The notes under the pieces were generated by a model. That model saw only the letters and a list, made by a program, of their open reading frames with translations. It did not search any database and had not been told where the DNA came from. Shown here in pieces: positions 2,901 through 57,845 of a stretch of DNA of 59,924 nt; within the stretch, counting starts at the first letter, position 1; the number at the start of each line of letters is the position of its first letter. Origin of the DNA: Girardia tigrina (taxonomy: Eukaryota); the NCBI GenBank assembly GCA_001938485.1, contig MQRK01206452.1, positions 1 through 59,924 of the forward strand, written 5' to 3'. The position numbers were made by a program, and so were the translations under genes.

Positions 2901-3196
2901 TATATATAAGATGGTTCGGATTAAGACGAGAAAAATATGTGTATATGTATAAATGTATATATTTGATTTTGTAGAAAATAAATAAAAATTAGTTTTAGGA
3001 ATTTCGCCTTGTATAAAAATATGTAAATAAATTTGTGATCACAAGGATTTAAGATTCAATAAGGTATTAGATAAAGCAATTACAATGTATGTATATGGAG
3101 TATTTGATAGTGAAAAGCAAAGACGAAAAGATGGTACAGTTATTGTATAAACACAGTATTAGAACTGTAAACAACAATTACGAACAGAAATAATAT

Positions 3197-3570
3197 ATGA
3201 AGTAAGTTGTATCTAAACCTTTTATATTTACATATAGAGTACATATCAGATTGAAAAAGCACTGAAAGGATATCCTCAATTCCGTTGAGTATATTCGTTG
3301 GATAAAGTTCCAGATTATCTACTCGATTGAGGATATATAATTAATACTCAGACTTCTAATTTCCCAAGAGAACACTGGATTACAGTACATGTGACTGCAG
3401 ATCTAATGCGAGTATTCGATCCACTTGGGACGTATTACCTATCAACGTTGGTGACAAAATTGGAACGAATGCAACAACCTGCCATATATAATGATGTAAT
3501 GTATCAAAATCCACTAACATTTCTTTGTGGAAATTATTGTATATACTGGCTTAAACGCCAATTGTTATAA
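3197..3570 (+). pseudogene. Adenain-like (Polinton PRO) cysteine protease pseudogene
   Basis: YIINT...EHW...FDPLG...YN...YQ...CGNYC carries the His/Asp/Gln/Cys catalytic pattern; two in-frame TGA stops. Confidence 0.85.
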
Positions 3571-4559
3571 AAAAGTTGCTATGTTAATAAATTGTTATTA
3601 TTGTCTACCTTCTTTATTTATTTTGAGAGATTTGTGGATAAATATGATGAGTACATGATTAAAGAGCTGTGTATAATGTCTGTGGACAATATGTTAAATA
3701 CATTACATTATGTATTTCAGTAAGTTAAATTAGTGTTGCAAATGTAATAATATGTGTGGGTGCAATTTCTAGACCTAAAATGCATTGCTGCTCAAACAAA
3801 GCACAAAGAAAAAATGCTCATTTAACATTAACTCATCATAAATTGATGTGGGAAGAACACAATACCAAGTTTTGTCCGATTGTTTAATGCGAGACATTCG
3901 ATCACGATGTAATTTAGCTGAAGCATTGTTTTATGTCAAGGATAATGATGATGGACGAAAGGAAAAGTTGATAAAGTCTTTATTTCCTGATCTGAGAATA
4001 TGCACACATAAATGTGACAAACTAAAAGCGATACCAAAAACATTACTTGTATATATCGTGAACATGGTTCACATTGTGCTTATGTTAGGGTTTCGAAAAA
4101 TACATATAAACACTTTTGATAAAATTTTATGTAGAAAAAATTTAAAATAATTCTTTTGGTAAAATTATTAATTTCAAACAAAATACTTAAAAAAAATTTA
4201 TTTATTGATTTTTGTACTTTTGCACATGTGCAGCTTGAAAAGCACTGTGCTAGCGCATTAAAAATGTGCTTCAAAATGTGCACAATCGATTAGCACTTTT
4301 AAAATATCGACTAGCACATCTGGACACTGTGCAGCGATTGATTAGCACTTTTTCTATGGTTTCTATAGAAAGGGTCACTGTTGTTATGGATACGGTAACC
4401 GTTACCATGGGTACAATCGCCTTGAATCACTGTATCCGTTGTTAATGAAAGACGTCCCTTGTATATCGTTGCTATGGTAACTAAGACCTTGGTTACCATT
4501 GCTAAGGTGATCGGAACCGTTGCTATGGTGACCGGAACCGTTACTACCTAGGATTAAGG

Positions 4560-4775
4560 TGATCGGAACCATTGCTAGGGGATTACGGACCAATAAGAAG
4601 TGTTTTTGGGTAATCGCGACCGTTGCTAGGGTAATCAGAACCATTGATATGGGATTACTGACCAATAAGAAGTGTTTTTGGGTAATCGCGACCGTTGCTA
4701 GGGTAATCAGAACCATTGATAGGGGATTACTGACCAATAAGAAGTGTTTTTGGGTAATCGCGACCGTTGCTAGGG
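4560..4775. repeat. 72-bp tandem repeat, three copies, inside the Maverick TIR
   Basis: Unit ...ACCAATAAGAAGTGTTTTTGGGTAATCGCGACCGTTGCTAGGGTAAT... is repeated; this produces the 24-aa periodicity in the ORF track. Confidence 0.9.
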
Positions 4776-4892
4776 TACCAAGAACCAATCAGAAGGATTT
4801 CCAAGTGAGCCGTAACCGTTGCTAAGGTAACCACGATCATTGCTATGGTAACCCGGGGGGTGTGGGGGGAGAACCCGCATTTCCCCCCTACT

Positions 4893-5955
4893 AAAATGGT
4901 GAAGAAACACAACCACTGCGCAAATGTGGTAGAAGCAGAAGCCGCAGAAATTATTTATAATATTCAAAATGATGCTAAAACATTTAATAACTTGCGTCAC
5001 TATATCATTTCAAGTGACGTTGCAACTTGCTCACAAGTAGCATCCCTATACTTCTAACGATTTATACAATGAAAGGTACGATACGCAAAGTAAGAAATCA
5101 TCATATTGATTGACTAATTCAACTATCTCACATCAGAAATTTATTTTTCCAGAGAATGACGCTAAACTACGTGGAGGGGAAATTTTCCTAAGGGATTTTG
5201 GACATGAAGACAACTGTAGGATAATCATCGATACGAAGAAAGGGAACATTAGGAAAATATTTTAATCGACAGTATCACCGATGTCAATATCTACAGATTT
5301 TGAAAAGGCCACAATTAATGCTTGTAGAAAAGTATTTCCAAATGCTGAAAAAGGGGGTTTCTTTCAATTTTCGCAAAGCATTTATCGTTCAATTCAAAGT
5401 AATAGATTGAAAAAGCGGTACGAAACGGATGTTAATTTTTCATTAAACATGAAAATGCTGGGTGCAATTGCATTTGTTCCTATTAAAGCAATAGTATATG
5501 TTTTTGAATATCTATGTGACAATTTAATATTTCACCGGAAGCACAAGAAGTTATCGAATATTTTAAAGATACGTGGATCGGACGTCCGACCAAAATCAAG
5601 TTACGTCGACCTCCACTGTTTGCTCATGAAATGTGGAATATACATTTAGTTCTTCGCCAAGGATTACCACAAACTAACAATTCTACAACACAATAGTTAA
5701 AAATAACAATAAAAGAGACTTCTAACAGTTTATAATAGAAATACCAGTGTAATTGAATATTTGAAAGGTATTTCTTATTAATAAAATTTGTTATCTTTGT
5801 TCGGTTTATTTTTTGAGGTAAATAATATAAGTTTATATTTTTCATTAAATCTTTAGTCGATGAATTTTCCGACGGTGAACTGTTGGGAGTATGAATTTAC
5901 CAGCGATGAATTGCTGTTTCTATGAATTGCTTTCGATGAATTTTCCGGATTCCTT
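4893..5955 (+). mobile_element. MULE/Mutator transposase remnant
   Basis: TDFEKATINACRKVFPNA..FFQFSQSIYR (MULE DDE domain); downstream PQTNN; TIR-like GAATTT(A/T)CC repeats at 5860-5955. Confidence 0.8.
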
Positions 5956-7056
5956 TTTTTCTGGTTTAATGGGTATGGAGTTCGATAGCAGCTACTTAGG
6001 GACGCAAGTGTCATATCTATAAATAACCATACCGCGTGCCGGTATTCCCGGTATTGAAACTGGTTTGCGATGATGTACCATAGTTGAGTTAAGTAGAAAA
6101 TGAACAATTTTTAGTGATTCATTTCAATTCCATTGCTTTATCTATTCAAGTAAAATAAAAAATTTTAAAACCTGAGAGGTCAAATATTGACGAATTTACC
6201 ACTGTAGGAAATTTCAACCATGGCTTGAAGACCACTGGTGTAACTGAAGACGGGCGAATATGAAAATTGTTTGCTAAACGTGTGTCATAATGGGTAATGC
6301 GATATACTTTTGGTATCAACTCCTCCCTGTGAGTTAAATAAAATTCAGACTGATTATCATCGAACAATAGAGGACAGGGAAAATTTCTCAAGAACAGTAC
6401 GTTATCCATATAATTTTGTAACGGTGCATTACATATCATATACCGTGATTGTAGGTTTGCGATGTTGGTTCTCTCAATACGAAATTTGCATCCATTTGTA
6501 GTTTCATTCAGATTGCTTACAGAAAAAATAAAGAAAAAAACTTAAAGGAAATTTGAAAAAGGTAGAATTTTCAATTTGGTCCAACTATTTGAAGAGGTAG
6601 TCAACATCAGAGATATGCCCCAACAGTCAAGTGGATTCACTACTGTGATGGTAAATTGTGGGGTTTTAACTCGATAGTGGTTAAATTGTTGTGGGAGTGA
6701 ATATAAAATCAACTTTTTTATTTTATAAAAAATTTTTTACAGGAATATTTACGGATTTAGCTTAAAAAAATTTCCAAAATCTGGTTAGCGATCAGTGTGA
6801 TAGTAAATGAGTCTATTCGATAAATACATATATAATATACATCACTCAAATCAACATTGAGACAAATTTCTTTAATTATCCGTTAGACAGAAGAATCTTT
6901 AATCCCAGCTCCTAAATTGTCATAACTATTCTTTCACAATATCTTGGTTATTTAAAACATAATAAGAATTAATAGTATATGAAAATTCATTTGAAAATAA
7001 AATTTCATAATGTTATACAATTTTTGACTTATTTTAAATATTTTTAGATTGAATTA

Positions 7057-29300: not shown

Positions 29301-32300
29301 AGTCATCCATTTAAAAATATATTTTAAGACAATATATTTCGACGGATCTACCGTCATCTTCAGGTCACTAATTAATAATCAATTCACCTGTATATAAATA
29401 CAAAAATGATGATTATGTAATCGAATGCATGAAATCATGCTAATCAAAAATTCTCAATAAGTTGGTTGAGACTGCCGATTGAACATTGATTTTAGGGAAA
29501 CGTGACCTAATTAACAATGCTTCACACGACACTCTCTCCCAATAACTGTCAAAATGCTTACACAGTAATGCCCGTCATCTCTGTAAACGAATTCAAGAAC
29601 ATGGTCGAAAAGAGAGTAAGAGTATTATTGCAGAACATAGGAAAAAATGTAAATGTGATGTTAATTTTGATAATTTCAAAATTCTGTGTAAGCATTTTGA
29701 CAGTTATTGGGAGAGAGTGTATACAAATGACTATTCAAAAACCTTTATCTTAAATATTTGGAAGAATTAATACTAGTTAGATTTTAAACTTTCCACAGCA
29801 AACAGAAGTATAAATATTTGTTAATTTAACCTGGTAAGTACTAGATTTTTTTTCTTAAAATTTTTGCATAAAATTTACTTATTATGATGAATTATTAATG
29901 ACTCAATTTCTCCTCATATAATTTTCGGAGCTGAAAGATAACACATGAGACAATAGGGTGACATGCTTCCTAGTTGATAATGACTAAACTTCCTGTAAAC
30001 TGATGTGCAATATCAGAAAAATTAATAAAAATTGACTGATCCACATTAGAGGCCTATGGTACTTAATGGGTTAATATACAATGTAGTGCCCTACTTACTG
30101 ACACTGCATGACTGTTTTGTTTGTATGTCTTTTGACCTTTGTGTTTCTTTCAATTTACTTCTGTACAAAGCCTTGGAGTGACTAGTTATTTTTTATACAT
30201 AGGGATTCCCATGTGTGGAGGCGTGTGATGCATATTGTTTTTTTTTGATGTTATTTTTGAAAGCCGTTTTCACTTCTTAATACAAAGTATTCTATCGTCA
30301 GTATTAAGTTTTCAAATAAAAGATGAAAAACCAAAAGTTCTCGGAAAATTTCTTTAAACTAGTGAACATAATTTCTACTGCTTCAACAATACGATTTTAT
30401 GTGATGTGACGAGCACTGTTGCCTAAGAAAACAAAGTTGAACAACTATGATCCAAAGATTAGTGAAAATGAAGTTGATTTTGACAGTAATGAAAAATTGT
30501 ATAATCAGATAGTGTGAATTAATTTTTAATGAAAGTTGCGCAGCAAGATCAACCATTAAAAAAACTGGACAGAAAATGTCTGATAAGCTTAACAGATAAT
30601 GATTCTGAAATTGAAGTATCCGAAGAAGACATTCATTTATTCAAACTCAACAGTTTATGATCCAGAAGAGAATTTGCTTCTCTTGCCTCATCTAAATGAA
30701 TCATCTCTGTTACATAATATCCGTTTAAGATTTTCCAAGAATCTAATATATACGTATGTTGGGAAACAATTGTTTTTCGGATACTGTTGGATTCGGTTAC
30801 TTGTATTCGAGCTGGAATGATTATGAATGCAAGTCGATGTGGGAAACGTGTAACACTTAATTTTAGTCATGTTAATCATTATATCGTCCTAATGGGATTG
30901 TATTTACAGGAATCTTAAATTAAATCGTGATCTTTTTCGTTCAAATAAACTCGTATATCTTCAACAAAGGCGTGTTACAGAAAGGAATCGATATTTTTTC
31001 TAAAGCGACAGAAGAAGATATTAAATTAAGATAATAAATAAAATCTGAAATTAAATCGATATTAATAATCGACTCAAGAAAGATAATTAAATTAACTTAC
31101 TTACCACGTTATGACAATGCATTATCGGATTAATTAACGTTTATGAATCATGAAATTCGACGATTTTGTTTTTTTATTCACGTATGTAAGCTCGTTATTG
31201 AATTTGTTTTTTTTTGGTGTTCACAATTAAAGATTTTTATTAACTGTTTAACTTTATTTTATTTATTTACTTTTATTTATTTGTAAGTAAAAATAGTTGA
31301 TCTATCATTATCACGGGATCAACTATTTTTACATACAACTTATCCCAATTTGCTTTAGTTTTTTATTTTTACTTAATCTTACTTTTTTGATATTTATATA
31401 TTTAATATTTAAAATTATTATTATCATTATTACGACTATGTAATGCATTTTGTTATTAATATTACATAGTTCGTCCATATGATACACAATCTTCAGTTCT
31501 TGTAAATCTGCTTAATTGTAACGAAAATCCAGGCTCCAATAACTCAACTGGATTTATGAATCGTCCGTTACTTAGAAATATTTCAAATCCTCCCCAAATG
31601 TCTGAACAGTTTGAGTCTCCGGCATCTTATCAACATATGTCCAGAATTCATCAATTACCAAGAATGAGAATGCCAAATCCCAATCCACCAAAGTCTACTG
31701 CCACAACTGCTTCTCCTCGCCCGACTTTATCAAACATATCGTCATCACCTCCTTCTAAACCCGATATAATGATGATGCCATATCCTCAAGACACAGGTAA
31801 TGGTCGTGCTCTTATGTCTCGAAAACCAAGAAAAAGAAAGATGACAACTTTAGAATTAAATCAACGTCTTCCGAAGCAACCACTTATGCAACCTCCAACA
31901 CTTCGTCAGCCAGTTCATCACGATATGATGCATAATAATATGCCAATCTCGAGTCATTCCATGCCTCAAATGCCGAGTAACATTCAACAACAACATCAAC
32001 CACCTTCTATTTCAAGTAATTTCTCTTCTCCTACTACAATGGATCAATCTATTTATGATTTCGATGATAATGCTGACTGTGGTCGATCTCGTAACATGTC
32101 GTCATCTGCTAGTAGTTCTTCACAATCGAATAATTTCAATAACCTTGCAAATCGTAAAATATCCAATACTGCTGTATCCAAAAAACCATTAAGAGTAAAA
32201 ATATCTCGGAAAGCCATATCACAAAATCCCGGATCACAAGAATTTAAGACAGATCCTGATTTGAAAATGAAAGAAAAATTAGCGAAATCAAGCAGCCACA

Positions 32301-35300
32301 TCCCAGGATTTAATCAGAATATGTCCAATCCTCGCGGTTCCACTGCAATAATGAATGCCATTGATTCTCCATTGACTTGTTCTTCATTGTCTAGTATGCA
32401 AACAAGTCCCCATGGTTCAGTTAACGTATCTTGTTCTCAAATGCCCGGCTCAATGGAAAGTATGGGAGATCAAATCTTGTTAAAGAAACGGCGTAAACGT
32501 CGTATAAAATCTGAAATGGAGGAAATATCAGAAAGTTTGAGGAAAAAAGAAAAAATCGAACTGAAAAAAAATCGTAAAAAGAAAGAATTACTTTCAATTA
32601 ACGGTAATTCTCAATCCGGATTAAGTTCCAATAGTTCCATGGAAACTGTTCCAAGTATCGATACAGCTATTAAAGCACCTCTACCGATTAAGTTGTCATT
32701 AAATGCTAAAACTGGATCAGTTAGTAGTAATAACAACAATTTGAATAATTCTCTCCATAATCGTAATTCTAAACTAACATTACCGATGGCGTCTCAACCA
32801 TCAAATTCTAGTAACGCATGGATGAACCAAAACAATCCTCTTTTAAAACAATCAATGAAATCAGAATCGAAACATTCAAATAGTTTAGCAGAACCTATCT
32901 TAAAGAATTATAAAATTCCTAAGAAGAAATCATCAGATCAACAGCAACAACAACAGGTAGTCTCTGTTCCTTATCAGGACTCAGTAAAAACAATATTACA
33001 TTCCAATCCATCGTTTAATAAATCTCATCAAATCGTCTCTTCAAATGAACTTTCAAAAGCTGTGAAAGAATCTGTAGAATATTTAAAATCAGAAACTGAA
33101 GCGTCGTCCCAAATGTCTAGTGTTATCATCGACCGAAATGAGCGACCGAAAACTCCAATAATGCTACACCCAGACGCTGCTGTTAGTCTACCCATGCAGA
33201 CTCAACTATCAAATTCAATGTCAGAAAACGATTTTAAGCATAATTGTCCTGATTTGTCATCTAACACTGGCTCGACACCGCCAGTCAAAGCAAAAAATAT
33301 CCACGATATTGTCGATAAATTACGAGCCAGAACAAGCTCGACAAGTGGTAGCGGAGGTAATATTGATCCATCTTCAGTCTCCAATGCCAGCAGTGCTATC
33401 GCTAGTGCCATCATTTCGGAATATTCTTCTTCGTCTTTGTCTAAACCTACTGGAGCATCTTCTTTTACCACTTCGAATAATTCCGAAAATAATAATAATA
33501 ATCAGAATTCAGAAAACATTTTCGAAAAATTCTCCGGTTCCAAAAACAACGGCAAATCTGAGTGAGATTAATAAATTTTTGTTTTTTTTAATATTACTTT
33601 TTATATAAAAAATTTCTTTTCTTTTAACTTTATTTTGTAAAATTTTCGATAGTAAAAATCGAAACAATGTTGTTGGTTACGATAAATTTGACTAAAACTT
33701 ATCGCCGTATCGATAAACGAAGTCTAGAACATCACATGGCTCTTAAAATCATATTTTCAAATACTTTAATGTGATAGGAAAAAATCACATTTCATGTTTA
33801 TTATGTTTTATTAAAAAGCAATATTACATTCCATCGTTTAATAAATCTCATCAAATCATCTCTTCAACTGAACTTTCAAAAGTCGTGAAAGAATCTGTAG
33901 AATATTTAAATTCTTTTCTAATTTGTGTAAGTCGTTTCCTTCGTACAAGAATTGCTAAACACACTAAACGAGTAGAAATAGTTCGATTTTGGCCCATAAT
34001 ATAAATGTTAAGATTGACATTGTGAAGGTTATAATAAATATCTATGAATGATTTCAAATAATCTTGACACAAATTATGTTATGATTGTTGTCGCGGTATT
34101 GTAAATCGGTTTTTATGGTAATAAATTATCGAAGGGCGCATGGAGGTATTTACTGGAAAATGACCATTTAAAACTTCAACGTTGGGAAGGGTAAATTAAT
34201 CGTACAATTGTGAAATTTTATGATTTTGTCCAATAAAGTACAAAGTTATTTCAGTTCCATGTTATTTAGTTTTTTTATTGATATGGTCCCCTAAAACGTT
34301 GTAGTAGTAGTCAAAACATTTCTGATGTTCTAGTGTTCAGTATAAAAAGGTATGCGTAATATATATTTTTAGTTTTCCAAGATAAAGTTCACATAGAAAT
34401 ATTTCTGTATTTCTTAACTACATTCAATATACAGGGACTGCAGCTATTTGAGAACAAAATGATGTCCACGGGAAAAAGTGAATGGACAAAAGATAAAGAA
34501 CATTTATTACACCCTAAAACTTTATATAGATTAACGCATACATCAAGGACGATATCATTCAATGAGCCTGCAATCAGCGGCCACAACTGCTTCTATACAC
34601 TGTCGAAACCGACTGCAGGCAGTAATTAAATGAGTCTTTGGAATGTTCGCCAATACATCCACTACAGCAGCTCCTAGAGCTGAAAAAGTGTTTTGGGGAT
34701 GACTATTGGAGTTCCTCTGAACTACGTTGCATGCATAAAAATCCAGCGGATTGACATCTGGTGAGCTTGAGGGTCAAACGTTAGGTTGGATATGGTCGTG
34801 AAAATTCTCAGTTTTCCGTTCTCTGTTTTTTTGGCTGTATGAAATGGTGCTGAGTCTTGTGGAAAAACATGCGGCCTCCAATGTGTTACAGTAGCAATAC
34901 AAGGCTTGACAACTGTAGCTAATACCTCTGTGTAAGCGACGGCATTGACTCTGGCATCTGAAGTAAAAAAATGTGGAGGTATCACATCACATTCACTACT
35001 AGCAACACCGAGAATCATCAATCATGGGGGAAATTTGGTACGCTGGGCCATCGGTATCTCATCAGGGCTTTTACACAACCACCGTATTAGCTACAGTTGT
35101 CAAGCCTTGTATTGCTACTGTAACACATTGGAGGCCGCATGTTTTTCCACAAGACTCAGCACCATTTCATACAGCCAAAAAAACAGAGAACGGAAAACTG
35201 AGAATTTTCACGACCATATCCCACCTAACGTTTGACCCTCAAGCTCAATCATCAATCATGGAGGAAATTTGGTACGCTGGGCCATCGGTATCTCATCAGG

Positions 35301-48553: not shown

Positions 48554-49058
48554 AGTTTTGTATTGTATACAAACGTAATATAATTGTATTTTAAAAATAG
48601 TTTTACATAATGAATTTTAAATGAAATTTAAATAACATAAGTTATAAAACCCAAAATGGTTTAATTATAAATCGAATATCTAAATATTTGAAGATTAAAT
48701 AAATATTAAATGTTATTGAAAAATGAGGAAATTTTTTCGAATAATCATTATTAAAAAATCCAGAAATAACACTAATTAGAACGATGGAAAATGGCGACGG
48801 ATCTTCCGAGACTCTAATTTTAATGATACGAATGTTTTCATAATAATTGTGTCAGTACTCTTAACCATTATCCATAACAATATATCTGTATATATTTAAT
48901 GTAACATAAAATAACGTAAATTATAACACAAAACGATGTTTCAAAAATATAAAAATCATTTCAAAATAAAAGATCTTAAGTCTAAATCAAAAAATACAAC
49001 ATTTGAAATTAAAACCTCATAATTATCTGAAATCAATAATAATTAATTCTGATAAATA

Positions 49059-50210
49059 TTGGGTTGGCCAAAAAGTCATTGCGTTTTTTTACTAAAATAT
49101 TTATTATCAAAAAAATGACATGGATGCACAAATATTTTTACACGATATACTGTCCATTATTTTCAATCACTTTCTTCCACCTTTCCGGTAGCTTCATTAT
49201 TCCTGATTCATAAAAACATTTGCCTTTGTCAGCAAAAAAAGCCGTCTAGGAACGATTTGATGTCATCATCACTGGCGAATGTTTTTCTGTTTAAAGAATT
49301 CTGCAGTGATCTAAACAAGTGAAAATCCAATGGGGCCAAGTCTGGAGAATATAGTGGGTGCGGCAAAACCTCCCAACCCAGTGATAAGAGTTTCTGGCGA
49401 GTGGCCAAACTTGTTTGCGGTCTTGCGTTATCATGCTGAATTACAACTCCTTTTCGATTTGCCAATTCAGGACGTTCCTGTTGAATTTAATGAGCCAATT
49501 TTCCAACTGACCACAATATCTGTCTGAATTGATGGTTTCATTCCTCGGAAGGAGTTCAAAAAACACAATTCCTTTAAAGTCCCACCAGACGGAAAGCATA
49601 ACTTTCTTTTGTTGAATTTCTACTTTTGGGATCGTTTTGGCAGGCTCACCACGTTTTGTCCATGATCGGTGGCGTTACACATTGTTGTAAACAATCCATT
49701 TTTCGCCACCCGTAACCAAGCGCTTCAAAAATGGATCACTTTGTTCTCGCTTCAAAAGGGAATCTTAAATGTCTATGCGTTTCACCAAATGAATTTCTTT
49801 CAGTTCATGTGGTAACCACATATCGAGTTTACTGGCGAATCCAAGTTTCTTTAAATGACTTCCAACACTTGATTTTGATATTTCCAGAGTCTCTGCAACT
49901 TCACTTGTCGTCATATGTGGATTAGATTTGATCAGTGCTGTTATTTTGACGCCATCAACTTCAACTGGTCGACCGGAGCGTGGTGCATCTTTCAGATAAA
50001 TTTTTTCAGAACGAAATTTAGAAAACCAGTATTGACACTGTCGACGTTTTAAGGAGTCACTACCATATACAAAACATATCTTCTTATGAGCTTGCACAGC
50101 GGTTTTCCCTTTGCGAAAATAATGCAACAAAACATGACGAAAATGCTCATTTTGATTTTCCATTTCGAATTGACGGTAAAGTAATAAATTAAAACAAAAT
50201 CAATTAATAT
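49059..50210 (-). mobile_element. Mariner element (frameshifted transposase, 5' TIR missing)
   Basis: ORFs 49765-50163 and 49229-49465: WLPHEL, HDNARP, HPLYSPDLAPLDFHLF; TIR TTGGGTTGGCCAAAAAGTC. Confidence 0.95.
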
Positions 50211-50417
50211 GATTTATACGCTCCTGAGTTATAGTTTAATCATTAACTTATATTATTATTTCGAATATTGTTTTAATACTAATTAATTTTGTTTGGTTGA
50301 TTAATTAATTTTTTGTAATTTAATTACTGATGTAATTCGATATATGAACAGAAGGGGTATATAAATTCAACTCACTTTATTAAATAGTTGTCTATGAAAT
50401 ATTCTGAGGATAGTAAT

Positions 50418-51053: not shown

Positions 51054-52631
51054 GACATAAATCGTTTACATTAGGACACTTTCTCGGTCTGAGATTCTTT
51101 TTTTATCAATGCATCAATCGCCATGTTATTCTTCTGCTTCTGGAGCTCCTCAATAGCAAAGTTTACACAAGCAATTGCCATATAAATTTTTACTACACTA
51201 TGTCAAATAATAATAATTGTATTTCATTTTCGTAAATTGTATTTCAAAAACTCATAAAATAAAATAAAAGCAATTGTATTTTAAAGAATAAAAATTTCAT
51301 TTCATTTTTAAATTATGATTTACTGTATTACACTGTAGAAAACGTAAATATGTTAACTAAGGTAAAAATTCAATGATAAGAGATATTTCAAAGTTTGAAA
51401 TTAAAGCAAAATTTTATGCAAACAAACATAACGCACCAGATAGAACCCGATTGCAACTGTTTGCAGATGACGGATGGAGAGTTCCGGTTCCCTGAATATC
51501 GAAAGGTGAACCTACCGAGTATGAAAACAGACCAACAGTTATAAAGGGGGGTCACCTACAACCTGAGGGTTCAGAGTCTAGAAAGGGTCTGAGACTCCAA
51601 AGTGTCAACTTAAAACCATAGATAACTCGACATTACTTACAGTGTGGAGAAGGTTCCGATAAATTGGTCATAGAAGAATCCCTAAATAGTTATAATGTTA
51701 GATTGCCAGTAATAAGTTATGAGGTTCTGAAATTGGTCGACAGTAAATGGAAATTTGGATATAAGGTGTTCACGAAACCTAGTTAACGTGTAAGATTTCC
51801 TGAATGATGTTTAACAGGAGTTGTAACGAGTGGTAAGCAACAATTGCGTTGATATCGATTGGGTATCGAGGCATGTGCAGGATATACAACAAGGATTCTA
51901 ACTAAACGACGGAGGGGAATATTGACAATTGTAGACAAAACGAAAACAGACAGCAGCAGTAGCATGTAGGTCGAATGAGAAAAAACCAGGTGAGGGAGAA
52001 AATAGTGTGTGAAGATCAAACACGGAAGGGATATCCCTGGTAGAATGACTGTGTGAAATGGAGTTCAAGTGGGTTCAGTTCAATAAAGTTAATTTTATAC
52101 TTCTAATTTGTATATCGGAACTGAAATCTTTGCTTGTATATTCGGATCTGTAGTGGAAGTCATGAGGTTGTATTGAATTTTAATATATTGTTTGATAGAG
52201 CGTTTGTGAAATACAATATTATTCTTCTGTTTGAGTTAGAAAATTTGTTCGAAACTACAGAGGTCATACGTTTTCGTGGAACATTATAATTTCTTTATGT
52301 TCTGCAATTAAAAGTGGAACAGTATAATTTCTTTATGTTCTGCAATTAAACTCGAGTTTTTTTGTAACTTTCGGTGATCTATAGCAATCTGAGCACAATA
52401 CATATCAGCAGTAATGACTTGTTCTCGTAAAGTCTACCAAAATATCATCATAATCTTTCTTTGGAATTGTTTCTGGGGCTCCCCTGTGCTCAATCCAATG
52501 GCTTAATCTTCCGGGATTGTTATAGGTCCACTGTTAGTCACAGGTGACAATTGGATCAATGAAAGGATTTCTGCCTACTGATAAAATTCAACAATTGTAG
52601 ATGGTAAATTGAGTCCTTATCTTGTTTTCAC

Positions 52632-52960: not shown

Positions 52961-53149
52961 TGAAATCGAGTTTTAATTTAAATTTGCTTTTCATGAAGAC
53001 AAGAACAGCACAATTTTCGAAAATAATATCCAATTTATAGCAAATTAGTACGATTGCCCTTCTAATGATTTGTTATTAGAAGTTTCTAGAATTGCCCGGC
53101 AGAAATTTACTCATATCTTCACGGAACGGCACTCGATGAAATTTTAGTT

Positions 53150-53392
53150 AGGCATTGCATTTATGGCACGCAAGAACACTTCTTTGTAATGATATTGCAA
53201 GAACTGATAATGCCATTGGAGGACGACACAATTCATTCAGAAATATATTTGGTAATTTGAATCCAACACTTAAAAATTTTATGCAGAAAGTAAAATTCGA
53301 AGAAAGATCATGTTGTCGAAAATTCATAATGTTGACGAATAGTGAAACCATTAGGAGAAAAAATAATTATGTGATTTTTAACGAAATAATAA
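53150..53392 (+). mobile_element. MULE transposase C-terminal fragment
   Basis: RTDNAIGGRHNSF (RTNN.EG.HN motif). Confidence 0.55.
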
Positions 53393-53617
53393 CCCATTAA
53401 TGCCGAGAATTACGTAATATGAATTTTCCATGCCAAATGACTCTTTATGATGTTAATAAACAACTGAAACACTCAAAACGAAACAAAACAAGTTCCGTAT
53501 GGGTTCTGAACCTTCAGAGTACACACCGTATCAAGGAAACATAGCTAAATACAATGTCTTTACTTTTACAGCCATTTTTATTAGCTGGGCATGAATGTTC
53601 CGTTTGGCGTTAATGGG
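53393..53617. mobile_element. piggyBac MITE
   Basis: CCCATTAATGCC...GGCGTTAATGGG; flanks ATAA and TTAA. Confidence 0.8.
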
Positions 53618-53748
53618 TTAATAGCTTTTTTAATGGACCGAGCCAATAGAAATCCAGAAATATATATTTTGGAATCGACTGATTTTATTTATTATTAATG
53701 ATAAAAACCAGGTGAGGGAGAAAATAGTGTGTGAAGATCAAACACGGA

Positions 53749-54139
53749 AGTAGGGGGAATTGTATATTCTGTCCCAGTACCCACTCCCCGGGGGTGCGTC
53801 ACCCGTTGCCATGGCAACGGTACCATTTACCATAGCAAGGTCGCGGTTACCTATCGATTAGCATATCTGGGAACTGTGCAGTAATCGATTAGTACTTTTT
53901 TCTTCGGTTGCTATCGTTACCATGGTTACAACAGCCTTGACTCACTGTATCCCTTGTTAATGAAAAACGTACCTTGGTTACAGTTGCTATGGTAACTAAA
54001 ACCTTGGTTACCGTTACCAAGTGAACCGAAACTGTTACTAGGGTGATCGGGACCGTTGTTATGTTAACCGTTACAGTTGTCATGGCAACAGGTGACCCGC
54101 CACCGGGGGTTGTGGGGATAACATACATTTTCCCCTACT
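53749..54139. mobile_element. 391-bp non-autonomous Maverick/Polinton-derived element
   Basis: AGTAGGGG...CCCCTACT ends, ~70-bp imperfect TIRs, interior homologous to 4290-4560; empty site at 52011-52040. Confidence 0.8.
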
Positions 54140-54206
54140 GGAAGGGATATCTCTGGTAGAATGACTACGTGGAATGGAGTTCAAGTGGGTTGAGTTCAAT
54201 AAAGTT

Positions 54207-54381
54207 TCGACGTTTTTTTCGGTGTTTTAACGTGCCCCGATTTGGATGGTTGTCAAGGTGACTTTTATGGTTGCTAAGGAAATCAAAACCGTTGCTAGGG
54301 TAATAGGAACCAATCAGAACTGTTGCCATGCCAACTTTGACCGTTGCCGGGGGTATTACTGAACTCTCATTTGCCCCTACT
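54207..54381. mobile_element. Third Maverick-type terminal fragment
   Basis: CCGTTGCTAGGGTAAT..GAACCAATCAG motifs as in 4760-4795; ends CCCCTACT. Confidence 0.65.
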
Positions 54382-55740: not shown

Positions 55741-56967
55741 TTAGGTTGGCCAAAAAGTCATTGCGTTTTTGAGTACGTCCTAATAAAAAGCTTGAAAGTA
55801 TAAAACGATGTGATAAAATTTAAATTCAATTATATATTCTGAAACCTTAATTTTCTGACTATGTTTATACAAAATATTAATTGATTTTGTTTTAATTTAT
55901 TACTTTACCGTCAATTCGAAATGGAAAATCAAAATGAGCATNTTCGTCATGTTTTGTTGCATTATTTTCGCAAAGGGAAAACCGCTGTGCAAGCTCATAA
56001 GAAGATATGTTTTGTATATGGTAGTGACTCCTTAAAACGTCGACAGTGTCAATACTGGTTTTCTAAATTTCGTTCTGAAAAAATTTATCTGAAAGATGCA
56101 CCACGCTCCGGTCGACCAGTTGAAGTTGATGGCGTCAAAATAACAGCACTGATCAAATCTAATCCACATATGACGACAAGTGAAGTTGCAGAGACTCTGG
56201 AAATATCAAAATCAAGTGTTGGAAGTCATTTAAAGAAACTTGGATTCGCCAGTAAACTCGATATGTGGTTACCACATGAACTGAAAGAAATTCATTTGGT
56301 NNNNNNNNNNNNNNNNNNNNNNNNNNNNNNNNNNNNNNNNNNNNNNNNNNNNNNNNNNNNNNNNNNNNNNNNNNNNNNNNNNNNNNNNNNNNNNNNNNNN
56401 NNNNNNNNNNNNNNNNNNNNNNNNNNNNNNNNNNNNNNNNNNNNNNNNNNNNNNNNNNNNNNNNNNNNNNNNNNNNNNNNNNNNNNNNNNNNNNNNNNNN
56501 NNNNNNNNNNNNNNNNNNNNNNNNNNNNNNNNNNNNNNNNNNNNNNNNNNNNNNNNNNNNNNNNNNNNNNNNNNNNNNNNNNNNNNNNNNNNNNNNNNNN
56601 NNNNNNNNNNNNNNNNNNNNNNNNNNNNNNNNNNNNNNNNNNNNNNNNNNNNNNNNNNNNNNNNNNNNNNNNNNNNNNNNNNNNNNNNNNNNNNNNNNNN
56701 NNNNNNNNNNNNNNNNNNNNNNNNNNNNNNNNNNNNNNNNNNNNNNNNNNNNNNNNNNNNNNNNNNNNNNNNNNNNNNNNNNNNNNNNNNNNNNNNNNNN
56801 NNNNNNNNNNNNNNNNNNNNNNGGAATAATGAAGCTACCGGAAAGGTGGAAGAAAGTGATTGAAAATAATGGACAGTATATCGTGTAAAAATATTTGTGC
56901 ATCCATGTCATTTTTTTGATAATAAATATTTTAGTAAAAAAACGCAATGACTTTTTGGCCAACCCAA
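55741..56967 (+). mobile_element. Mariner element with both TIRs (centre in N-gap)
   Basis: TTAGGTTGGCCAAAAAGTCATTGCG / CGCAATGACTTTTTGGCCAACCCAA with TA flanks; ORF from 55921 is essentially identical to 49765-50163. Confidence 0.95.
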
Positions 56968-57159
56968 TATTTATCAGAATTAATTATTATTGATTTCAGA
57001 TAATTATGAGGTTTTAATTTCAAATGTTGTATTTTTTGATTTAGACTTAAGATCTTTTATTTTGAAATGATTTTTATATTTTTGAAACATCGTTTTGTGT
57101 TATAATTTACGTTATTTTATGTTACATTAAATATATACAGATATATTGTTATGGATAAT

Positions 57160-57845
57160 GGTTAAGAGTACTGACACAATTATTATGAAAACATTCGTAT
57201 CATTAAAATTAGAGTCTCGGAAGATCCGTCGCCATTTTCCATCGTTCTAATTAGTGTTATTTCTGGATTTTTTAATAATGATTATTCGAAAAAATTTCCT
57301 CATTTTTCAATAACATTTAATATTTATTTAATCTTCAAATATTTAGATATTCGATTTATAATTAAACCATTTTGGGTTTTATAACTTATGTTATTTAAAT
57401 TTCATTTAAAATTCATTATGTAAAACTATTTTTAAAATACAATTATATTACGTTTGTATACAATACAAAACTTACGTAGTTTATGTTTTAATTTATTTGA
57501 AAAATATTTCATTTAAATTCTTAAAAGTTATTAAAACTAATGGTAAAATTATTTCAAACATCATAATTTTTATTTGATAAAAATACATTATGTAATTTTT
57601 AAAATAAACATTAATTTTTTAAAAATATTAAATTTAATAAGTTAAAATCGTTTACTGAAAATATTATTAAAATTCATAATTATCAAACTTTAATTAATTA
57701 GTACTTTAATTTAATATNATTAAATTAATTTCATTAGATTCAAATAATTAATCAAATAACATATCAATCCCATCTGAGTAGGAGAGTCACAAATCTAAAC
57801 AGAATACAAACAACAAACTTACAACATTCACAATTATCCCTCACA
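57160..57845 (-). mobile_element. Family L LTR-like element, divergent copy
   Basis: TGTGAGGGATA start, CTCTCCTACTCAGATGG box, AGAACGATG module; no TSD seen. Confidence 0.65.

Follow-up and report, generated by a model that had tools for sequence, protein, structure and literature searches.

Polintons, or Mavericks, are defined by a polymerase and an integrase in one unit. In the available text of the reports describing them, they measure 12.7-25 kb and carry an AGT-type end motif, long terminal inverted repeats (TIRs), and a 6-bp target duplication (PMC8097293, 10.1101/2023.08.22.554363, PMC4405056); the Maverick duplication is given as 6 bp in the accessible parts of two papers (PMC8097293, PMC3014272) and as 5-8 bp in those of another (10.1101/2023.08.22.554363). 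The family analyzed here has the same type of motif, TIRs, and duplication and, like Polintons as these excerpts present them, genes for pPolB, an rve integrase, an A32-like ATPase, a capsid-like protein, and an adenain-like protease. Against the Polinton length stands a unit of only 391 bp without genes, and the core genes of the family lie on two TIR-bounded units (modules) of ~8 and ~9 kb, whereas those of Polintons, in the same excerpts, lie on one.

In C. elegans, as here, partial Polinton copies and TIR-only insertions occur, and pPolB lies beside a TIR without integrase at 10 loci; the available part of that report describes the copies as remnants and contains neither a census of two-ended copies below 500 bp nor a complementary second module (10.1101/2024.01.15.575659). 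Non-autonomous Polintons are apparently absent from the anole, according to the portion of the anole paper at hand (PMC3014272). Bidnaviridae and the Drosophila Vesanto virus have several segments with similar terminal inverted repeats, as do our modules, and the bidnavirus polymerase is of Polinton descent (10.1101/2020.10.16.342956, PMC4405056; partial texts). These segmented pPolB viruses are described there as ssDNA, whereas the modules here are integrated dsDNA with an integrase and Polinton-type capsid-like genes, and the likeness is known here from genomic arrangement. Further Polinton literature was consulted in excerpt (PMC6431247, PMC8504770, PMC8532177, 10.1101/2025.02.07.637071), and a term search in the accessible text of 10.1101/2022.07.12.499685 returned nothing. 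No paper on MITE-sized or bipartite Polintons was found in the literature searched, which was partly excerpts, thin in subscription papers, and without Repbase or supplements. Repbase presumably lists non-autonomous Polinton entries. Among DNA transposons, Ds-like internally deleted elements and MITEs retain both ends and the target duplication while the interior is gone, and a MITE family is defined by amplification of one junction. The 391-bp unit resembles Ds-like deletions in its kept ends; unlike a MITE family, it shows no amplification of one junction.

Structure and insertion site of the 391-bp element

The window analyzed is a whole contig of 59,924 nt (C206452) from the Girardia tigrina assembly, which comprises 1.43 Gb in 255,254 contigs. 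The element begins AGTAGGGG and ends CCCCTACT, with the termini AGTAG...CTACT (Table 1). It is a real, Polinton-derived feature: an earlier note, made from the sequence of the window, had called it a gene-less Maverick/Polinton derivative, and both its ends and the genome matches bear this out. It has no ORF of at least 100 aa in the ORF list and no match in Rfam, and its interior, as the note also claimed, is homologous to the TIR of the window's own Maverick fragment (83-84% identity to 4305-4542). The TIRs were rightly described as imperfect, but their proposed length of ~70 bp was too short: the left and right arms align over 104 columns at 73%. Folding of the 391-nt strand gave end-to-end pairing with z = -7.4 (0 of 100 shuffles as good).

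DNA searches of the genome scored the best 40 of 3212 and the best 40 of 635 candidates. The element divides in two: positions 104-391 correspond to the outer ~290 nt of family ends (76-86%), and positions 1-103 correspond to those ends in inverted orientation; the closest relatives among the scored candidates are 81-86% identical. Inward of position 104, all 20 other displayed loci lack a second terminus and mostly continue with further TIR. Because the inward sequence elsewhere is mostly TIR and never a second terminus (20/20 displayed loci), the element consists of two fused ends, 103 nt from one and 288 nt from the other. The first 152 nt of the element have 41 other matches (with the best 40 of 635 candidates scored), and none of them spans the internal 103/288 junction; the only loci to cross it in a set of 298 that were fetched are the window's own five.

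Table 1. Coordinates of the element, its surroundings, and the two modules of the parent family. Positions are those of the window unless a locus is named.
Feature	Position	Strand	Basis or remark
Right end of integrase-capsid module copy	3045..4892	+	Comparison with module B copies
Protease-like gene, open part	3331-3570		Within fragment 3045..4892
ORF	3842-4150		Within fragment 3045..4892
TIR	4187-4892		Within fragment 3045..4892
LTR-like unit (putative), TGAC...GTCA, purine tract before	51923..52162	+	Likely donor of 110-nt piece; holds unsplit site
Unrelated high-copy host repeat	53082..54243	+	Interrupted by small TIR element and by LTR-like piece with element
110-nt piece of nearby LTR-like unit, split by element, itself inside another repeat	53703..54206	+	Alignments; joints 53698-54209/54213
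GGA, left target-duplication copy	53746..53748	+	Sequence; likely 6-bp duplication minus 3 nt (loss presumed)
Gene-less two-ended Maverick/Polinton derivative, 391 bp	53749..54139	.	Sequence and genome comparisons
Left arm, outer ~103 nt of one TIR	53749..53851	+	Family ends at most 81%; right arm 73%
Outer ~288 nt of other TIR	53852..54139	-	TIR continues inward ~1 kb or more in family copies
GGAAGG, right flank	54140..54145	+	Identical to paralogous unsplit site 52024-52029
Third, orphan terminus of family, ~135 nt	54245..54381	-	Sequence comparison
Module A	L105:271-8342		pPolB and TBP-like ORF between family TIRs
Module B	C223974:9435-18479		ATPase, integrase, capsid-like, protease between same TIRs

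The repeat split by the element (53703-53748 and 54140-54206) matches 51981-52090 over 48/48 nt on the left, 2 of which fall within the element's first AG, and over 62/67 nt on the right. The earlier claim of a split repeat with an uninterrupted copy therefore stands as to the split, but the 'empty site' is paralogous rather than allelic. The unit holding this site, putatively an LTR to judge from its sequence, is nearly unique (15 genome matches, 3 of them the window's own; the other long ones at 68-73%). In copies of the host repeat elsewhere, only ~8-20 nt separate ~53699 from ~54205 (4 of 11 loci had matches on either side), and the joints of the 110-nt piece in the host repeat are also present in two outside runs. 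The exact target duplication of this copy is GGA, 3 bp, one of the two versions (GGA or GGAAG) offered before; the duplication of the family is 6 bp, neither 3 nor 5, and is not found at this copy. GGA is best read as a GGAAGG duplication whose left copy would have been shortened next to the terminal AG.

A parent family apparently in two modules

The family TIR is ~1-1.7 kb long with an AGT/AG-type terminal motif, and its 15-mer terminus has 14,600 exact matches in the genome (control 6). Longer elements sharing the TIR do carry Polinton genes, as a check suggested in the earlier note anticipated: pPolB, an integrase, and a weakly matching ATPase were found, but on two modules. The same note had considered that the TIR might belong to a non-Polinton transposase element; in the TIR-bounded units scanned, no cut-and-paste transposase was seen apart from a mariner piece inserted in L227.

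Module A contains a PF03175 pPolB type with an endonuclease VII domain and a TBP-like ORF between inverted family TIRs. PF03175 has 93 scored genome matches belonging to at least two families; it occurs together with PF02945 in L105, L124, L110, and L114, and inverted TIRs lie on both sides in L103, L105, and L109. Whole module A units with exact 6-bp duplications are 8072 nt (L105) and 6710 nt (L103) long. The TBP-like ORF (L105:6762-7382; PF00352, E = 1.6e-10) lies beside the TIR in several module A copies and is absent in others. In module B the protease-like gene lies just inside the TIR, with the capsid-like gene, the integrase with a chromodomain, and the ATPase following upstream, and then another TIR. 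The rve domain (E = 5.9e-8) and the chromodomain were recognized, Pox_A32 weakly (E = 0.003, below the cut-off). The protease-like and capsid-like assignments both scored close to certainty, the latter with recognition slightly below the tool's mark; neither protein has a Pfam match, and the protease has none among PDB sequences. Module B forms a 9045-nt unit in C223974, where its duplication has one mismatch; C226144 has a deleted form with an exact duplication. Both modules, A at ~8 kb and B at ~9 kb, thus exist as units that carry 6-bp duplications of their own. A ~115-nt stretch, ~80% identical, is common to both modules (L105:5657-5770 and L224:2590-2706) and lies within ORFs pointing inward from a TIR.

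We tallied what lies next to the inner ends of the modules, where overlapping loci may be counted twice. A TIR came next at 23/28 left ends of B (3 locus edges, 2 other), 24/36 right ends of B (7 edges, 4 other, 1 B), 12/12 right ends of A (3 of these more than 400 nt away), and 7/13 left ends of A (the other 6 being A pieces); in no case of this tally was the other module next. Module A DNA was present in 1 of 20 ATPase-anchored contig regions, and 3 of 156 loci held both modules, with a TIR between them in L212 and L218. At C243586:13313-23819, pieces of both share one orientation, separated by 2.5 kb in which no TIR was found; this is possibly an unsplit relic, a nesting, or a misassembly, and it counts against a clean split. 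This locus aside, pPolB and integrase were not found together in one TIR-bounded unit among these regions and loci, the mark of an autonomous monopartite Polinton. The module tallies rest on a short-contig assembly and on the best-scoring copies. As to arrangement, we consider it probable that the parent family is bipartite, with a pPolB module and an ATPase-integrase-capsid-protease module under the same TIRs.

Polymerase-only units and integrase/capsid-only units are each found as discrete insertions, which makes the trans mobilization suggested earlier plausible within the family; a satellite family is not supported. Modules A and B would act in trans, supplying one another as well as two-ended remnants of any kind. 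The interest lies mainly in this apparently bipartite and very abundant family: a split, very high-copy family implies trans complementation and links Polintons to segmented pPolB viruses. It would also escape Polinton mining, since the filter, in the available text of the method, asks for the core genes inside a 20-kb span (10.1101/2023.08.22.554363).

L125/L126 carry an integrase, a capsid, and an ATPase that were rejected as the mobilizer, because they belong to another Polinton family and our terminus there faces away. In this second family (C237301), pPolB, ATPase, DJR capsid, and an integrase with a PLA2-like domain lie in one stretch; BLASTP between the capsids of the two families was not significant.

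Short copies and the origin of the element

We searched the genome for two-ended copies with exact end motifs in four size windows (222-282, 283-343, 376-406, and 407-467 nt); the patterns demanded both ends, so that end retention in short copies is built in. They returned 12, 12, and 2 loci of 222-282, 283-343, and 407-467 nt, respectively, against 0 in the controls. For 376-406 nt, 3 matches against 9 in the control were obtained with a looser 8-nt motif, a count that is no evidence by itself; two matches were retained for their sequence, not for the pattern count. Dropping three of 23 distinct short pairs left 20 sites including the 391-bp unit. L060 was dropped because an N gap next to a tandem end lies within it, and a 252-nt pair because it is nested within a 431-nt site (L152:1501-1931), where the left end and its 6-bp flank are tandemly duplicated. 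The 297-nt L147 belongs to another family; at L147:1501-1797, AGTAG...CTACT termini and near-perfect ~75-nt TIRs are surrounded by further inverted sequence, with no duplication.

The tabulation of short copies and duplication lengths proposed earlier thus yielded 19 other sites of 226-448 nt, of which 17 have a 6-bp duplication (9 exact, 8 with one mismatch), one has two mismatches, and one has none. The 6-bp duplication also flanks nine larger copies. Sets of 305 and 339 nt, each on four contigs, were rejected as families, since their identical flanks make each a single insertion. Among the 20 short sites only L129 and L131 (253 and 232 nt) align over at least 80% of both lengths, at 86% identity and with different flanks; both are largely tandem 21-mers, and they may share one junction, a doubtful pair. 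Larger two-ended copies, script-selected for a 6-bp duplication, measure 2002, 2110, 3813, 3955, 5884, 6710, and 8072 nt, and their deletions differ. Some two-ended copies retain only ~13-25 nt of one end, and in L112, one of the larger copies listed, apparently only ~13 nt is left. The 391-bp unit is therefore one point in a 0.2-8 kb continuum of different deletions. It is short and gene-less with TIRs and a target duplication, as MITEs are, but many dispersed copies of one short structure were not seen in the four size windows or among the scored candidates.

Family pairs per size window numbered 12, 5, 2, and 2, where the 12 include one pair nested within the 431-nt site. A rough model in which each copy has one uniform deletion predicts 3.1, 3.8, 2.4, and 5.3 for windows of 61, 61, 31, and 61 nt. 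The observed counts fall with size where the model predicts a rise, which points to an end-proximal process and fits aborted repair and defective replication products alike.

We find it rather likely that the 391-bp unit resulted from a longer copy at the same site through a single internal deletion and is not a member of a satellite family, because its junction is unique among the copies examined, the junctions of short copies differ apart from the one doubtful pair, and ~20 sites are few (~0.3%) beside the ~7,300 insertions to which 14,600 termini correspond, unlike a MITE burst. As the anatomy shows, another repeat received a copy of a short piece from the nearby LTR-like unit, presumably by repair. 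A family element would then have integrated into this piece, likely duplicating GGAAGG by the 6-bp rule of its relatives and likely by means of the module B integrase. Its interior would have been lost, probably through aborted gap repair after excision or a break, as is known for cut-and-paste elements, which copies a short stretch of either end; finally, three bases of the left duplication would have disappeared. The footprint would, however, be identical if a ready-made mini had inserted de novo in a single event, and no allele with a longer element at 53749-54139 was found. The arms are only 73-80% alike, against ~96% between the flanking LTR-like piece and its donor, which is difficult to square with identical arms at the time of insertion; given this divergence, the unit could already have been degenerate on arrival. 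The outer 100 nt are variable in other family copies too (83-97%).

Such a ready-made mini might have been a short defective product of template switching in protein-primed replication, integrated once in trans by the family integrase. Trans action is implied by the discrete insertion of polymerase-only and integrase-only modules with 6-bp duplications, the arms diverge more than the flank does from its donor, the folded strand could form an end-to-end panhandle, and the size skew toward short units also fits; yet short templates should out-replicate and recur, while the junctions are almost all single, and we regard this origin as rather unlikely. That the minis in general are de-novo integrated products is doubtful, and it is unlikely that the family is a bipartite polintovirus in an animal, its gene-less minis being defective-interfering genomes replicated and integrated in trans.

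Assembly collapse or gap-filling that joined both ends of a longer element appears improbable. In its favor are the strong fragmentation of the assembly, the many listed termini close to contig starts, and the N gaps that separate the ends of 2 of the 19 other short sites; against it, the internal junction has no N, no repeat, and no long microhomology, and contigs from the two outside runs cover both outer junction regions at a depth close to that of a single locus. These runs come from one study and may lack full independence, and bridging of the internal junction is not among their results; the contig over 54122-54278 shows six differences and has only 18 nt within the element, below the 31-nt bridging rule, and single contigs show variants at 53760.

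Quite improbable is the minimal satellite of the earlier note, an amplified MITE-like family member defining the minimal cis-acting origin: short two-ended copies do exceed the control and one pair possibly shares a junction, but no second copy of the 391-bp junction was present among the matches scored, the multi-contig sets are single sites, short copies are a minute fraction of insertions, and an origin is unreadable from this unit, as shorter two-ended copies exist and both ends were required by the patterns. Taken alone, the 391-bp unit amounts to a modest fossil, showing that Polinton ends can survive as sub-500-bp two-ended remnants. The hundreds of natural deletions that the family offers could serve to map, from observation, which end sequences are needed.

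Other features of the window

A third terminus had been placed at 54207-54381; the terminus is confirmed, but it starts near 54245, and ~54207-54243 is host repeat. At ~53390-53620, a small element with terminal inverted repeats lies inside the host repeat and is missing from its other copies. The whole finding is enclosed by a ~1.6-kb inverted repeat (48554-50218 / 55866-57472; 99-100% identical, with a 522-N gap), which contains a mariner HTH fragment and may be an assembly duplication. A stop-to-stop frame of 701 aa at 31460-33565 has no Pfam match.

The window's own Maverick fragment had been described as bearing capsid and protease. Its protease-like gene was confirmed, whereas the capsid was not supported: the fragment covers only positions 5420-6462 of the capsid-integrase module, the protease end, 3045-4892 has no capsid match, and the coding stretch to the left (~1414-2091) is a Gypsy RNase H. 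The protease-like gene lies directly inside the TIR and has 150 scored matches of 492 candidates.
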